Positions 30,744 through 36,700 of a stretch of 64,000 nucleotides of DNA are shown here, in pieces; the stretch's first letter is position 1; every line of letters starts with the position of its first letter. The position numbers were made by a program. The stretch comes from Candidatus Xenobia bacterium (GTDB taxonomy: Bacteria > Vulcanimicrobiota > Xenobia > Xenobiales > QWHO01), in the NCBI GenBank assembly GCA_045863235.1, contig BTUM01000015.1:32001-96000 (forward strand), written 5' to 3'.

Positions 30744-33700
30744 CGAGCAGGCCCGGCCTCGGGTCGACCTCACCTTCGGTTTCTACCTGCGGGCCGGGGT
30801 GCCCACCACGGTGGTCACCTTGCTGCTGGCCTGGCTCTTGATCGGCTGACCTGCCGTGAATCGTAGACCGGGTAGCCAGGGTCAGAGGTCCACGGCAGGT
30901 GCACCCAGAAACTTTCAGGATGGCAAGGCGACGGGGCGTCGGCCTGGGAACCACCCTGATCGTGACCGCGATCGTGGCCCTGCTGGGTTTTGCCCTGGCC
31001 GGCGCCAGCGTGACCCACATCAACCTGATGACCCACACCGGCAACGCCTCGATGGCCCTCGATCTGGCCCGAAGCTCGGTGCACGTGGCACTCGGTCACC
31101 TGTTCACCGACAAGGACTTCCGCCAGACGGTGACCGTCAATGGTCCGGGCGGAGCGGTCGGACAACTCACCTTCGACCCTGCTCAGGCGACCAGCCTCGG
31201 GATCCCGCTGTCGGAGAACAATCTGACCGGGGGCAGCTCCAAACTGGCCGCCGACAACCAGATGGTGCCCGAGGAAGGGGCTTACCTGGTGGGGGTGGCC
31301 ACCGTGCGGGGGGTGACCCGCCGGGTACGAGCGGTCGTGCACCTGCCGCCCTTCCCGTTCGCGGCGGCCTCGGACGGGCCGATCGTGTCTCCTGGCAGCC
31401 TGGTCGTGGGCTCGCTAAGACCGGGGCAGGATCCCAATTCCCCCCCCAACCGCCTGCTGCCGGCTGACCTGCTGACCAATGACACCGGGCTGGCAGCCCT
31501 GACTCTGGGGCCGGCTACCAACGTGCGCGGCGACCTGCGCTCGGGCGGCGGGGTGAGCCTGGATCCGGGCGTTCAGGTCGGGGGCCGGGTGCTGACCAGT
31601 CAGGCCCCTCGTCTGGTTCCCGTCATGAGCGTGACCGGACTGGACCCGGATCAGCCTGCACCCATCGGTCATCCGTTCCTGGTGCTCCAATCGAGCTACT
31701 CGGGCACGACCTTTACCGGAACTCTGCGGGGGTCCGGCACGGTGACTGTCAACGGGCCCCTCAAGCTGGACCGGGCTCTGGTGTACATCGATGGCAACCT
31801 GGAGATCAACGGGGGCGTGGACGGTACGGGTGTGCTGGTGACGACCGGCAACCTGACAGTGAATGGACAGGCCAGCGTGGTGGCCGACAGCCGGGTGGCC
31901 ATGCTCAGCCAGGGGAAGATCACCCTGGCAGGCAACGGTCCGGTGGGCTCGAGCATCAAGGGGCTGGTTTACGCTGAGGGCGGGGTGGACGCCAAACAGC
32001 TCAAGCTGCAGGGGGCTCTGGTTTCGCGCAATCAGCCTCCGGTTCAGCTGGATCGGGCTCGCTTGCTCAATGACGGAGGGCTCCTGCAACCACCGTTCAA
32101 CACCCTGCCTTACGTGACGCCCGTGCCCGAGGTTCGCTATATCCACGGGACTGCTGCCAGTCCGGGTCCGATGCTCAAGACTGCGCCGAGCCCCCCTGCG
32201 AATCCGGTCAACGGGACCAGGTTCGGCTACTCCAAAGTTGAGGCCACCTTCCTCCCCGATGGAAGGGTGCAGGTAAACGCTCGGAGCTTCAGTCGGACTT
32301 ACCGGGTCCCTCCCGGGGGATGGGTGGATGACCCTGGCTACCCGATGGATTCCTCGCCCAGCCTGAATAGTCTGGCGTCTCTTGGACATCGGTCTGATCC
32401 ACTGAGAGACAGCCTGATTGACCCCCCCTTGCCCGGGACGGGTGGCTCGGCACCCACTTACACCCTGGTGCTCGACCCGGCCGAGCTCTTGCCCACGAAG
32501 GATCGCGCGCGCATCCTGATCTGGCGCGAAGGAGCTCAGTAGCGCACGTTGCGCAGCATCAGGCGGCGGGTCAGCTCGAAGCTCTCCTCTCCGAGCTTGA
32601 GGACCAGCTGAATGCGGGGCGGATCCACGCTCAGATCCACCGTGAAGCTCTCCACGTGGCCGGCCAGCACCGCTCCCCCCCCGGCCAGGGTGGCAAGCTC
32701 GGTGGCGATAGGCGCGGCGGGCGGCGGGGGGTTGGGCTGCTCGAAGAAGGGCTCGTCGGGCTGGGGCAGGCGTCCCACCGAGGGCGGCTCGGGGGGCCAC
32801 TGGCGACGATGGAGCTTGCGCTCCACCGGGTCGTAGCGATACAAGAACAGGGTCGTGCTCCACTCTTGCCCGCCTGTGCTGGTGACCGTGGTCAGAGGCT
32901 GGATCGAGAGCAGGGTGGAGTCGGTGGCGGCGTTGGTGGGCGGCACCAGGTTGATTCCGGCCCGGGGCGCGCTGGAGAGGTCGGCGGCCAGGCGGTCCAT
33001 GGCCACCTGGGCCAGCTGTTGCAGCTCGATCTGGGTGGCTCCCCGCCGTGTGCCCCGGCCCATGGGCACGAGTACCTGGGCCAAAAGCGTGAGCAAGATC
33101 ATTAAGAGGGCCATGGCCATCAACGTCTCGAGTAGACCGAAGGCCCGTCGGCGCCGCGCGTGGCACTCTCCACCACTGAGCGCGGTGCTCAAGCGCGTTC
33201 TGATTCTGCGCGGGACTCTAGATTCGCACATCGCACCGCACCGCTTCGCGAAGGATTTCCCGCTGCACCTGATGATCCATCCATACTACTCGCACCCTCA
33301 CGCCCACCAGCAGGCCCGGGTCCACCCCGGCCCGGTTCACGGTGAAGAACTGCACGGAGGGCTGGAAGGTGGCTCCCCGTCCGGGCACGGCTGGCAGGGC
33401 CTGGGCCGGCCCGGGCACCAGCTGGCTGAAGGGGCGCGTCAGCTGCTCCTCCAGGATCGAGTCAGCCAGGGCGTTGGCCTGCAGCCGCTGGCCGGAGACC
33501 CGTACCGCCGCCACCGAGGTGGGGTAGAGGTTGAAGATCAGTAATACCACCAGGGTGAGGATGGCAAAGCACAAAATGGCTTCGGCCAGCGAGGCTCCGC
33601 GCCGCCTCACAGGGTCTGCACCAACTTGACCAGGGGCAGCAGGGTGGCCAGGGCCACCACCCCGGCCATCAGGCCCATGGCCAGCATCATCAAAGGCTCG

Positions 33701-36700
33701 AGGGCGGCGGCGGCCATCTCCATGGTGGCCTCCAGCTCGAGCTGATAGAGCCTGGCCAGCCACTCCAGGGTGCCGGCCACGTGCCCCGACTCCTCGCCGG
33801 CGGTGACGGTGGAGAGAAAGGCGGTGGGGAAGAAGTCGGCCGCGGCCAGGCTCTGGTCCAGGCCAGCCCCCTCGCGCAGGGCATTCACGCTGGCTTGCAG
33901 GCGCTCTTGAAGCACGGGAGAGTTGGCGGCCGCGCCGGCCTGGGGAACGGCTTCCAGGATAGACAGGCCCACTCGCAGCTGCAAGGCCAGAGCCTGGGAG
34001 AACTGGGCCACCGCCACCAGGCGCCACAGCCGGCCGACTCGGGGCATCTCCAGCATGATGCGGTCGAGCTGGTAGCGGCCTTTCTCGGTCTGAAGATAGC
34101 GCCAGCTGAGAACCGAGAAGAAAGCCGCCCCGGCGCCCAGGGCCAGCAAGACGCGGCCGTCTGAGAGCGTGAACAGGGCCTTCGTGAGCCACGGCAGCTC
34201 GCCCCCGATCTGGTCGAGCATCTTCAGCTGACCTTTGAGCAGGAAAGGTGGTGCGGCCACGATCATGGCCATGCAGAGAACGAAGAGCACCGCGGGGTAG
34301 GTGAGGGCCGAACGCAATCGGAGTGCAAGGGCCCGGGCCCGTTCCTCGTGGTCGGCCAACCGGGCCAGCACCTCGACCAGGCTGCCGGTGGCTTCGCCCA
34401 CTTTGATCAGCTTGAGCTGAAAGTTGGTGAACGAGGGAGAGGCCTTCTGCATGGCCACCGACAGGGGCTTGCCCTGCTCCACCTCGGTCAGCATGCGTCG
34501 GCACACGGCCACGGCCGAGGGCTCGTCCCCCAGCACCGTGAGGGCCCGGGTCAGGGGCACGCCGGCCGAGAGCAGCACGGGCAGCGAGCGCAAGAGCACC
34601 ACCAGAGAGCGGTTGGAAAGGCGCAGGGCTCGGTCCGGCGCGGGCTTGCTGGCTGGCTCGGGCTGGTAGGTCTTGCGGGCCGAGGGCAACGGAGGAGGGG
34701 CCTGGAGGGGGGGGAGGGGGACCAGCTCGGGCGCGGGAGGTCGCTCCAGTTGCCACAGCTTCTGCTCCAGGTCGCGGGCATGGCTGCAAACCTTCATCAG
34801 GTCGAGCGAGGAGAAGGCCACTGCCCTGGAGCAGTGGTCGGCGTAAAGAACTCCCCGTACGCGCCTCTCGGCGTCTTGCACGGGCACGCACAGCACCGAG
34901 CGGATGCCGGTCAAGAGCACGCTGGAGCTCTCGGCGAACTCCGGGTCCTCGCGCAGATCTCCCGACAGGAGCGGGAGTCCCGACTCGATCACCTGTCGGA
35001 CCAGACCCAGGCTGATCGAGGCGCTCCACAGGCCACGCATCCCCCGCGAGGCCTGCACCTGGAGCTCTCCCGAACCGGTGCGGTCGTAGAGGATCAGCAC
35101 CCGCTCGGCCTGCAGGCCGTCCAGGACCCGGAACGACTCCTGGAAGAGCCTGGCGATGCTGGAGTCGGTGAGGGTTTCCATCAGCCCCCCCAACGACCCA
35201 GCGCGGCCACCAGGTGGGCCCCGGCTTCCTCCACGCTGGCAAAGCGCGATTCGGGAGCCTTGGCCAGCATGCGCAGCACGATCTGCTCCACCTCGGCCGG
35301 CATGTCGGGGCGCAGGCGCGAGGGGGGCTCGGGCTTCTCGCCCACGTGCTTGAAGAGCACCTGGAGCGGATCGGGAGCCTGGAAGGGCTGACGCCCCGTC
35401 AAGAGCTCATAAGCCATAACCCCCAGTGCGTATTGATCGATGGCTTTGTCATAGCTCACCCCCTGGATCTGCTCCGGGGCCATGTAGGCGGGAGTGCCCA
35501 GCACCGTGCCGGTCTGGGTCAGGTTGGTGGAGTTGTCTCCCCGGCTGAGGCCGAAATCCATCACCTTGAGCTTGTCCGAAGCTGTGAACATGACGTTCTC
35601 GGGCTTGAGATCGCGATGGATCACCCCGCGCGAGTGAGCATAGGCCAGGGCCTGGAAGAGCGGCAGCAGGACCTGGCCTGCTGGCTGAGGGGAAAGGCCC
35701 TCTCCGGTCAGTCGCTGGCGCAGGGTGCCGCCTTCCACCAGCTCCATGACCAGATAGACCAGCCCGTGCTCCTCGCCCCAATCGTAAAGACGCACGATGT
35801 GGGGATGATCCATCTCCTTGCCCAGGCGCACCTCGCGCTTGAAGCGCTTGAACAGCTCCGGGTCGCCGCTCAGGGTGGCCTGCAGCACCTTGACGGCCAC
35901 CTCCTCGCTACCCCGGCGGCCCCGGTAAACCCGGGCCATTCCTCCCGCGCCCAGCTCGCCCAGCAGGTGGTAACCGCCCAGCTCAGCTCCTTCCAGCAGG
36001 CCGCCCTCGGCCCGGGCCAGCAGGTTTTCTAGCTGGCGGGCCCGGCGGTGGCCGCGGGTCAAGAACAGCACCGTGCCTCCCGCTCCGATCAGGAGCAGGG
36101 CTGCCAGGGCCAGCGGGAGCCTTAGCGACGCCAGGTGAGCCGCCAGGCTGGCTGGCTTGAGCGTTACGGGCGCCGGTTTTCCTCCCGCTCCCAGTGGCAA
36201 CTCGCGGGCCAGCTTGAGGCGCGACTCCTGGATGGAGAAGGGCTCGACCTCATAACCGGGCAGGCTGAAGCTGAATTCGAGAGTCCGGTCGTCTTGTCCG
36301 CTCAGGGGAACGGCCAGCGGGGCGCCGCTCAGCCCCAGCGTGCGGGGGCCCAGCTTGACCACGGCTCCATGCGGGCGAGTGTGGAACGTCACTCGATGCT
36401 CGCTGGGAGGCGGCTGGGCCGCAGCCAACTGCGTCAGCAAGCAGAACGTGACCCCCAACAGCGCGCTTCTCACTCTTTGAAGCGAATTCGCGTTTGAAGC
36501 GGCACTTCCCCGCTCAAATCGACTTGAGCTCGTTCTCCAGGGCCTTCTGGCGGGCACGGGCGGCCTCGATCTCGACCTTGGGCAGGCCGCCCATCTCGTA
36601 GAGCTCCTCCAGCTTCTTGAGGTGCTCGCGGCCATCGGTGACTTTCTTCTTGAGCTGGGCCAGCTTGGTGTTCTTGCCTTCAACGGCGTTCTTCTTGTAG

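Follow-up and report, generated by a model that had tools for sequence, protein, structure and literature searches.

The genome of this Candidatus Xenobia bacterium (GCA_045863235.1) encodes about 70 three-gene sets of minor pilins, I, J and K, which look like alternative tips of type IV filaments and far exceed the two to four sets of model bacteria. A new feature is that a 120-residue distal domain of the large pilin, K, is replaced between close relatives. About a dozen of the sets are accompanied by a receptor kinase of their own, and in several of these the tip domain changes fast. The best reading, a probable one, is that of interchangeable, variable pilus tips operating on a shared machine. 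The known cases of cells that must choose among several minor-pilin sets have 2-4 sets and one platform protein.

The window, a 64,000-nucleotide stretch of contig BTUM01000015.1, contains one such set with a pilC and a kinase gene (locus C15). All five genes that the genome-wide survey's note had placed there are present, K on the forward strand and the other four on the reverse strand (Table 1), and the kinase opens with a GTG 15 bases past the earlier limit of 36458. Most module genes are translationally coupled; in the window the GTG start of I overlaps the stop codon of pilC, and the pilC ATG that of the kinase. Scans for promoters and terminators found no more than expected by chance, and contigs from four RNA libraries cover a 16-kb stretch evenly at low depth, a pattern that DNA carry-over would also produce. 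A ComEA-like gene lies 7 kb from the locus.

Table 1. Features of the minor-pilin module in the window (window positions).
Feature	Position	Strand	Extent	Basis or remark
K-type (PilX/GspK/ComZ-like) large minor pilin	30920..32542	+	540 aa	leader, fold match
Predicted beta-solenoid stalk of K	31352..32092	+	mature residues 139-385	ice-binding-protein-like fold
Hypervariable distal domain of K	32093..32452	+	mature residues 386-505	comparison with close relatives
Predicted C-terminal beta-strand of K	32510..32533	+	strand 525-532	modelled as returning to pilin sheet
J-type (PilW/GspJ-like) minor pilin	32536..33231	-	201 aa mature, from 33141	start codon uncertain
Putative I-type (PilV/GspI-like) minor pilin	33218..33610	-	125 aa mature	sequence comparison, Glu5 pattern
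GAF-PilC platform protein	33607..35181	-	524 aa	GAF, Pro-rich linker, two T2SSF domains
Receptor-type Ser/Thr kinase	35181..36473	-	430 aa	Pkinase match; Lys, HRD, DFG and APE motifs

The K protein of the window has a class III leader (MARRRG/, the slash marking the cleavage site), a hydrophobic helix and no Glu5; the prepilin motif G/xSLxE reported by the survey applies to I and J, whereas K reads G/VGLGT. Its model (pLDDT 87.3) matches ComZ in a structure search (E 7e-5), and ComZ is also the best full-length match in structural alignment (Z 14.8, residues 26-534); the alignments to GspK (Z 8.3, rmsd 2.7, 97 aligned) and XcpX span residues 29-534 and 37-534. A beta-solenoid resembling ice-binding-protein-like folds (Z 16-17, rmsd 2.6-3.2, 175-189 aligned) is inserted in the modelled pilin fold ahead of the last strand, in which Trp529 is conserved. 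K is modelled as a pilin of the ComZ/GspK type that carries a beta-solenoid and a C-terminal strand of its own, which would complete the sheet in cis. It matches none of the Pfam families at E 0.01 and nothing in the viral fold library below E 0.001. That the sets are ComZ-like DNA-uptake tips is very improbable: ComZ, the closest structure, binds DNA (PMC6561018), the pI of the window's K is 8.1 and the ComEA-like gene is near, but the 66 large K proteins have a median pI of 5.0, below 6 in 52 and above 8 in only 4, and DNA, a single ligand, would not need about 70 variable-ended tips.

The J and I proteins have the leaders RRRA/ and RRRG/, each followed by a hydrophobic helix; Glu5 is invariant across 42 rows of J and present in at least 90% of 45 rows of I. 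A search of 48,161 chains with the J model (pLDDT 91.0) gave TTHA1219 (Z 9.5), EpsJ (8.9), XcpW (8.6) and GspJ (7.8) as the top four, with rmsd 3.2-5.2 over 118-128 aligned residues, while Foldseek placed EpsJ best at E 0.003 and nothing below 0.001. J models as having the GspJ/PilW fold, and the survey's fold assignments, ComZ-like for K and GspJ/EpsJ-like for J, were both reproduced. The I protein has profile matches below the cut-offs (XpsI, E 0.0016; gspI, E 0.04), and a PDB profile search matched it to a pilin N-terminus only; judged by its sequence, it is a putative PilV/GspI-like minor pilin. As the survey had stated, all three pilins stay below the cut-offs of the Pfam models, the weak matches being N_methyl (E 0.0009) and ComGE (0.003), both on J. 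In complex prediction of I with J and K, K as partner scored 0.79, unrelated partners 0.00, but a control with J replaced 0.68, and the scores speak neither for nor against an interaction.

The survey's note put the amplification at about 12, yet it is far larger, and the kinase-linked loci are one clade of this bigger expansion. The whole genome contains 248 prepilin-like genes, 42 PilC-like genes and 68 triad clusters, that is, those of the 92 prepilin clusters that comprise a K and at least two Glu5 pilins; a fragment of a K gene is found at C66. With two prepilin profiles at E<0.01, 241 of the 248 proteins matched against none of the reversed proteins, and in 240 the start codon is 25 codons or fewer from the cleavage site. 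Prepilins lacking Glu5 are mostly at least 300 aa long (67/78), as against 8/170 of those possessing it. The core is small: one prepilin peptidase (PilD), two strong secretins, seven PilB/GspE-like ATPases, a single pilA-pilD-pilMNO-secretin locus (C145) and a T2SS locus (C26) with its own I, J and K (Pfam T2SSK domains). A pilC gene lies within three genes of 24 of the 68 triads, and 14 of the 42 pilC genes have no pilin within three genes. Three large-genome relatives have 149 (of 150 scored), 86 and 57 T2SSF domain matches with 2-3 strong secretins and one PilD each; two small-genome relatives have 8 and 4 such matches. The survey reported the K family in 59 of 401 genomes of the phylum, the threshold unstated; at E 1e-10 it was found in 48, and its absence from all 297 genomes of the largest family was upheld. 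Tips and platforms are multiplied tens-fold without a matching increase in peptidase or secretin genes. This makes PilC a candidate tip selector, for which the genome offers many natural tip-platform pairs, cognate and non-cognate, as test cases. The four-gene Verru_Chthon cassette (TIGR02596-TIGR02600), present in Verrucomicrobium in as many as about 20 copies next to large PEP-CTERM proteins, is likewise a pilin-like cassette repeated within one genome and gives weak N-terminal matches, but these cover the first 63 positions only and, at 21-30 bits, fall far short of the cut-off of 256.5 (best among 11 matches, 30.2 for TIGR02599), and the cassette is not known to include a pilC or kinase gene.

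The folds, the Glu5 pattern and the numbers of core genes all support the survey's view that the triads are pilus-tip sets served by a few shared core machines, and by analogy the tips may be exchangeable. Alternatively, the triads might initiate short T2SS-like pseudopili for the export or loading of specific cargo, protein or polysaccharide, via the second secretin, with the distal domain of K selecting the cargo. This is improbable. The last strand of K in cis as in GspK, the nearness of J to EpsJ, XcpW and GspJ (after TTHA1219), a weak match of J to HpsB/HpsC, the higher score of the window's PilC to GspF (203.7 bits) than to Thermus PilC (193.8) and the existence of a T2SS locus are consistent with it; but that locus has its own triad, whose K and the module K are related in their N-terminal helix alone. 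In the loci read, moreover, the modules have no recurrent cargo genes as neighbours, and an outside-facing adhesin is a better fit for a long solenoid whose end swaps alleles.

All 13 kinase-linked loci named by the survey were located, although the five-gene composition it gave for them holds in only six (C15, C3, C35, C53, C30 and C92+C96, the K of the last being split over two contig ends within a Thr-Gly repeat). The pilC gene is absent from C1, C14, C28, C36, C47 and C74, and both pilC and K are absent from C16, a locus at a contig end. The constant part of the module is the kinase plus the triad and PilC is optional, the combination without pilC being found at 6 of the 13 loci and at 9 of 40 held-out loci in relatives. 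As the survey had observed, no ATPase, secretin or prepilin peptidase gene lies within 6 kb of any of the 13; no FimU/H subunit was found in them either, H-like pilins being located elsewhere in the genome. The kinase-linked loci group in the trees of K (support 97), J (98) and I (84; this group also takes in three pilins of kinase-less loci). Mantel correlations (n=12) are 0.68 for K-J, 0.73 for K-I and 0.78 for J-I, and looser between the kinase and the pilins (0.43-0.61). Each module's genes have been copied together, so that whole sets may be exchangeable, with no apparent mixing of their parts.

The PilC of the window matches GspF (E 5e-60), T2SSF (E 3e-39, with two domains above the cut-off) and GAF (E 3e-9). 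Five PilC copies contain a GAF domain, as previously claimed, and form one group (support 100) in the PilC tree, which like the pilin trees was built with FastTree. In the module PilCs, GAF and a Pro-rich linker replace the usual short N-terminal domain, which occurs in 9 of the 42 PilC-like proteins according to a sequence pattern taken in part from the core PilC copy on C136; lacking it, the module PilCs may not be normal platforms. Conserved serines in their GAF domains need not be phospho-sites and are possibly structural.

The kinase of the window (Pkinase E 1e-55; Lys, HRD, DFG and APE all present) consists of a signal-like N-terminus, a possibly PEGA-like ectodomain of about 100 aa, one transmembrane helix and a C-terminal kinase domain, the signal peptide and helix being assigned from hydrophobicity alone. 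PF08308 (PEGA) matches 3 of 20 kinases, all below the cut-off and this one not among them; in the Atlas, the best matches of the ectodomain are PEGA clusters at 0.84-0.86, no more than a lead. The 17 C-terminal kinases form one group (support 88) in a quick tree. Over 16 aligned kinases, Lys is retained in 16, HRD in 15 and DFG in 14; at the first nine loci of the survey eight keep all three, as it had said, the C14 kinase having HGD and no DFG.

Of the 17 receptor-type kinases, twelve have an adjacent pilin or pilC gene, against 9 of 77 other kinases, themselves enriched relative to the 3.2% of all genes (Fisher p 2e-6 for the linkage, an overstatement because the paralogs are kin). At 33 of the 40 held-out loci in relatives a kinase borders a pilin or pilC, in many gene orders; the linkage has been retained through many rearrangements, in several families and another class-level lineage. 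The neighbourhood strongly supports the survey's term 'kinase-controlled', but only for part of the expansion: a receptor-type kinase lies within three genes of 9 of the 68 triads and of none of the other 59. We infer from this linkage that the kinases may control the tips. In one clade, the co-encoded receptor kinase would couple an outside signal to the tip, most probably through phosphorylation of a PilB motor or of its own PilC in the cytoplasmic part, a step which, taken by itself, has slightly less than an even chance of being correct. For the same tips, signalling in reverse, in which the cognate kinase senses, by way of its pilins in the membrane or periplasm, that a tip has bound its target and retracted, and tells the cell, for instance, to pause, attack or switch genes, is possible but rather unlikely. 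The kinase is retained with the triad more often than PilC is, 27 FHA-domain matches in the genome are possible phospho-readers, and the small ectodomain lies on the same side as the pilin heads; yet the kinase gene is usually immediately upstream of pilC where the latter exists, often coupled to it, kinases occur beside pilC without a pilin at C19 and C70, and PilC and PilB themselves carry fused GAF and kinase-like domains, as in the GAF-kinase-like-MshEN-PilB fusion at C22, whose kinase-like domain has EFG and no catalytic Lys.

The distal domain of the window's K is 30% identical to those of two close relatives, against 92-99% upstream; its flanks are 90-99% identical in the same relatives and its boundaries are sharp at the DNA level. 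The domain varies, probably by allele exchange, and it may bind a target. The distal part is conserved in four (C53, C14, C28 and C47) of the nine K genes with an ortholog. Conversion from pilS-like cassettes has no support as the source of variation, no silent copy of the domain having been found in the genome (97.6% complete) by tblastn or blastn. That the cassette was duplicated neutrally and merely took the kinase along is hardly credible. The loss of HRD and DFG in the C14 kinase, the K fragment and the near absence of the family from small-genome relatives (1/13) would agree with it, but dN/dS of 0.04-0.18 for all five genes (two close relatives, distal domain excluded) indicates purifying selection, the paralogs must be old because they are only 21-62% identical, and the kinase linkage has survived rearrangement.

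In the reading of interchangeable tips, each triad would be a self-sufficient I-J-K initiation and tip complex within a repertoire of about 70 sets for a few shared machines. The single PilD would cleave the three prepilins, as their motif suggests, and I and J would then join an apical K, as in known systems. Since K has no Glu5 and supplies its own last strand, PilY1 would be unnecessary. A search with PF05567 (PilY1) is uninformative on this point, with no match in the genome and none in 14 control genomes. The complex would prime the PilA fibre via PilMNOPQ, the module's own PilC, if present, loading or gating its own tip, and the solenoid stalk would present the exchangeable distal domain to a target surface. 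It is conceivable, if on balance doubtful, that this is a contact-recognition repertoire, in which many tips have a private platform and receptor kinase and work as parallel sensor-effector channels sharing one or two machines, while prey, partner cells or phage drive the distal domains to diversify by allele exchange. In that case PilC paralogs would act as the selectors, controlled by phosphorylation and, through GAF, by small molecules. A receptor kinase of this dedicated kind, together with a PilC fused to GAF, would be a control point new to type IV filament assembly. The K proteins also offer a natural collection of adhesin scaffolds in which one end can be swapped, and they hint at the way of life of an uncultured group with large genomes, whose pilins are missed by Pfam.

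This system was not described in the open literature searched, including passages of PMC9259500, PMC11484240 and PMC9758169. It follows the GspI-GspJ-GspK and PilV-PilW-PilX rule of small, middle and large class III prepilins with Glu5 in I and J, missing only in K, whose last strand is in cis (PMC13533445), but differs in the number of sets and in kinase-linked modules lacking H and co-encoding PilC and a receptor kinase; H usually accompanies I-J-K, as in the FimU-PilVWX-PilY1 priming complex. Thermus ComZ and cyanobacterial PilX (Com and EPS sets) also have a solenoid before the C-terminal strand (PMC13759059, PMC6561018), extra domains at its far end and a shared machine; cyanobacteria have two such sets, with PilX proposed to replace PilY1, and pilin-like proteins with Ser/Thr kinase domains are mentioned as well (PMC13759059). 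In the present genome, by contrast, the sets number about 70, the kinases are separate membrane receptors, the distal domain swaps between close relatives and most K are acidic. Kil (Tad) Tips 1-4 of Myxococcus xanthus are similarly scattered, paralogous three-gene tips, interchangeable and with variable distal domains (PMC12075869), and Myxococcales have one to three T4aP minor pilin clusters per genome (PMC13190605), M. xanthus having three minor pilin/PilY1 clusters, but those systems are of the Tad type or PilY1-dependent, their single pilC is counted as core and their sets are 20-fold fewer. Haloarchaea also have several pilC copies per genome (PMC6491452, PMC4371748), each with its own pilB, whereas here 42 pilC-like genes face seven PilB-like ATPases.

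The five genes described in the genome-wide survey's note, encoding a receptor Ser/Thr kinase, a platform protein (GAF-PilC) and a small (I), a middle (J) and a large (K) minor pilin, are all present in the window. The minus-strand kinase, GAF-PilC, I and J genes are consecutive, with overlapping stop and start codons, while none of the three pilins has a Pfam match above the cut-off, as had been reported. The Verru_Chthon cassette is an analog of the module; the module pilins fall below the cut-off of the Verru_Chthon profile. An M23 peptidase gene on the same strand stops 40 bases ahead of the kinase start, and the genes of an ECF sigma factor, a zinc-finger anti-sigma factor and an RseB-like protein are divergent from it. 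The fetched locus L072 carries the module at 94% identity in a record labelled 'uncultured Burkholderiales bacterium', probably mislabelled.

Location of the module genes (window positions) and of other features in the window and on other contigs (C) of the genome
Feature	Location	Strand	Remarks
Receptor kinase	36473-35181	-	GTG start; Pfam kinase E 1e-55
GAF-PilC	35181-33607	-	Pfam: two T2SSF domains, one GAF
I pilin	33610-33218	-	125 aa
J pilin	ends 32536	-	201 aa
K pilin	30920-32542	+	534 aa; convergent with minus-strand module genes
M23 peptidase and sigma/anti-sigma/RseB-like genes	36514-40274
ComEA-like gene	23296-24105		SLBB plus helix-hairpin-helix
GH5 cellulase with two CBM2 domains; P450-reductase fusion	9491-11428 and 12660-15857		ordinary
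GAF/kinase-like/MshEN/PilB ATPase fusion	C22:26119-29082 (locus L074:3123-6083, -)		987 aa
Related large kinase-AAA-TPR proteins	C58:12562, C24:47006, C35:6970		directly adjoin pilin genes
K genes with distal Thr-Gly or Ser-Gly tracts	C96 end/C92 start, C19:1, C29:64838		two break the assembly
Propeller-pilin clusters	C16:17243, C18:44469, C21:23134, C43:22414, C76:14285, C83:19834		six copies
N-terminally extended PilC paralogs (extension long, unannotated)	C32:10799-13837, C63:507-1937, C45:25921-27357		up to ~670 aa

The K model (pLDDT 87.3, 52-row alignment) has Thermus ComZ as its top Foldseek match (E 7e-5), in agreement with the ComZ-like fold proposed before. In a wide structural search residues 26-534 align with ComZ (Z 14.8, rmsd 8.6, 308 aligned), residues 139-384 with the solenoids of ice-binding proteins (Z 16-17) and residues 29-534 with GspK (Z 8.3, rmsd 2.7, 97 aligned); since the latter alignment spans 29-534, the last strand of K is predicted to close the pilin sheet in cis. 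The EpsJ/XcpW-like assignment of J (pLDDT 91.0; best Foldseek match E 0.003) likewise holds, its top four structural matches being TTHA1219, EpsJ, XcpW and GspJ (Z 9.5-7.8). The I pilin is assigned by sequence alone, with Glu5 present and weak XpsI/gspI matches. Glu5 occurs in I and J and is missing from K, as PMC13533445 states of PilK homologs. The module proteins are members of the universal I-J-K tip family.

Beyond the beta-solenoid, K contains a distal domain (mature residues 386-505) in which the window protein is only 30% identical to its counterparts in two close relatives (loci L071 and L072), whereas its pilin part is 97-99% identical, the solenoid 92-93% and the C-terminus 90-97%. 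The I, J, PilC and kinase proteins of the same loci are 91-97% identical, with dN/dS of 0.08-0.17; neutral copying of the modules is the least probable explanation considered, and is very hard to credit. The DNA change at the distal domain is sharp-edged, and dS there climbs to 1.1-1.4; although the alignment is poor, such values are more consistent with the exchange of an old allele than with point selection. One distal allele is common to genomes G001 and G003 (75-98% per 40 residues). Nine of the 12 kinase-linked K genes had an ortholog in the fetched loci: identity drops in the distal part for C15, C35, C30 and C3 and does not for C53, C14, C28 and C47, while the C96 comparison is confounded by a contig end. 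The drop recurs in tandem K pairs from two relatives (18-35% versus mostly 80-95%).

All 13 loci named in the survey, which counted about 12 copies of a five-gene module, exist, but the module is complete at six only (C15, C3, C35, C53, C30 and C92). The K gene of C92 starts on the end of contig C96, and the break falls inside a Thr-Gly repeat. Six of the other seven comprise a kinase and triad without pilC, and C16 has a kinase, I and J close to a contig end. Iterated profiles place these loci in one branch of a larger prepilin expansion. After removal of three doubtful rows (one below 45 aa, two lone weak matches) from 251, 248 prepilin-like genes remain, which form 92 clusters and occupy 217 kb, or 2.6% of the genome; a reversed-protein control gave no match at E<0.01. 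In 68 clusters a pilin lacking Glu5 is accompanied by two or more that have it, a count that includes the T2SS triad, one small C2 cluster and a distinct four-gene type; as there are both double-triad clusters and split triads, 'about 70' is a fair figure. A second repeated cluster type combines a 640-700-aa GspH/FimT-like pilin bearing a TolB-like beta-propeller, which may be a stand-in for PilY1, with two Glu5 pilins and a short, ~155-aa K.

The genome encodes 42 PilC-like proteins (83 T2SSF matches), of which only nine keep the usual short N-terminal pattern, and 23 T2SSE matches, seven of them scoring as PilB/GspE, together with two strong and one weak secretin matches and one prepilin peptidase. 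Contig C145 carries pilA, pilD, pilM, pilN, pilO and a secretin, and C26 a T2SS with a Pfam-detected GspK. There are also ~13 PilT/PilU-like ATPase matches, many paired, and PilB paralogs that bear an MshEN, zinc-ribbon or receiver domain.

Gene content, linkage, selection and allele variation are supported directly, and the folds through prediction; the triads are probably a repertoire of pilus tips. One PilD would process the prepilins, the complex would assemble at PilA fibre tips, the module's own PilC would load its tip, and the distal domain of K may bind the target. Pseudopilus cargo selection is unlikely, and a service in DNA uptake more so, given that the pI is below 6 in 52 of 66 K proteins.

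Defined by architecture alone (a C-terminal kinase after a hydrophobic helix), 17 of the 94 kinases are receptor-type. On the analysis's own gene calls, a pilin or pilC gene directly adjoins 12 of these 17, against 9 of the 77 others and 3.2% of all genes, although the receptor-type kinases are kin (overlapping a 17-row clade, support 88) and thus not 17 independent events. The held-out set comprised 39 ectodomain-profile loci of four relatives, outside profile building, and one of a fifth; the 21 matches of G004, a genome of the same genus, were excluded. A pilin or pilC lies within 1.6 kb in 33 of these 40 loci; all five gene types are present in 13, and a kinase with triad in nine more. The seven misses include two at contig edges and two without an intact kinase, and gene order varies widely. 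All five types occur together in 16 of 20 loci chosen on K similarity. Across 12 modules the pilins K, J and I are correlated in pairwise identity (rho 0.68-0.78, p 0.001), and the kinase is correlated with them more loosely (rho 0.43-0.61). No receptor-type kinase lies within three genes of 59 of the 68 triads. Kinase control of assembly, by action on PilC or PilB, is a tentative proposal with slightly less than even chances; in the main alternative the kinase would report tip contact to the cell.

Other kinase-pilus associations include an adjacent GAF-cyclase, receptor kinase and pilC on C19. The kinase-like domain of the C22 fusion lacks the catalytic Lys and reads EFG; its gene converges with a pilC and runs divergently from the gene of a PEGA-repeat kinase. 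A related GAF-like/kinase-like/MshEN protein without the ATPase is encoded near pilM-pilB-pilC on C8. The three kinase-AAA-TPR proteins constitute a second clade of pilin-linked kinases.

K resembles Thermus ComZ (PMC6561018) and cyanobacterial PilX (PMC13759059), and cyanobacteria have two tip sets per machine (PMC13759059), Myxococcales one to three (PMC13190605), while four Kil tips serve predation (PMC12075869). A predatory lifestyle is suggested for another family of the phylum in PMC9259500, a mere hint for this genome. Several tip sets per machine are thus already known; unusual here are the scale, the multiplied platform protein, the kinase and the variable tip. In the openly accessible literature no account of the expansion, GAF-PilC or kinase-coupled triads was found; closed journals or supplements may hold one.

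The K family is present in all four genomes of the organism's own family, in each of the 13 of a sister family, in one of 13 in a family with mostly small genomes and in none of 297 in the largest (48 of 401 in the phylum), and the kinase ectodomain in 25 of 401. Three large relatives have 149 (150 scored of 191 candidates), 86 and 57 T2SSF matches, and two with small genomes 8 and 4; despite these differences, strong secretins stay at two to three and the peptidase at one (none in G040).
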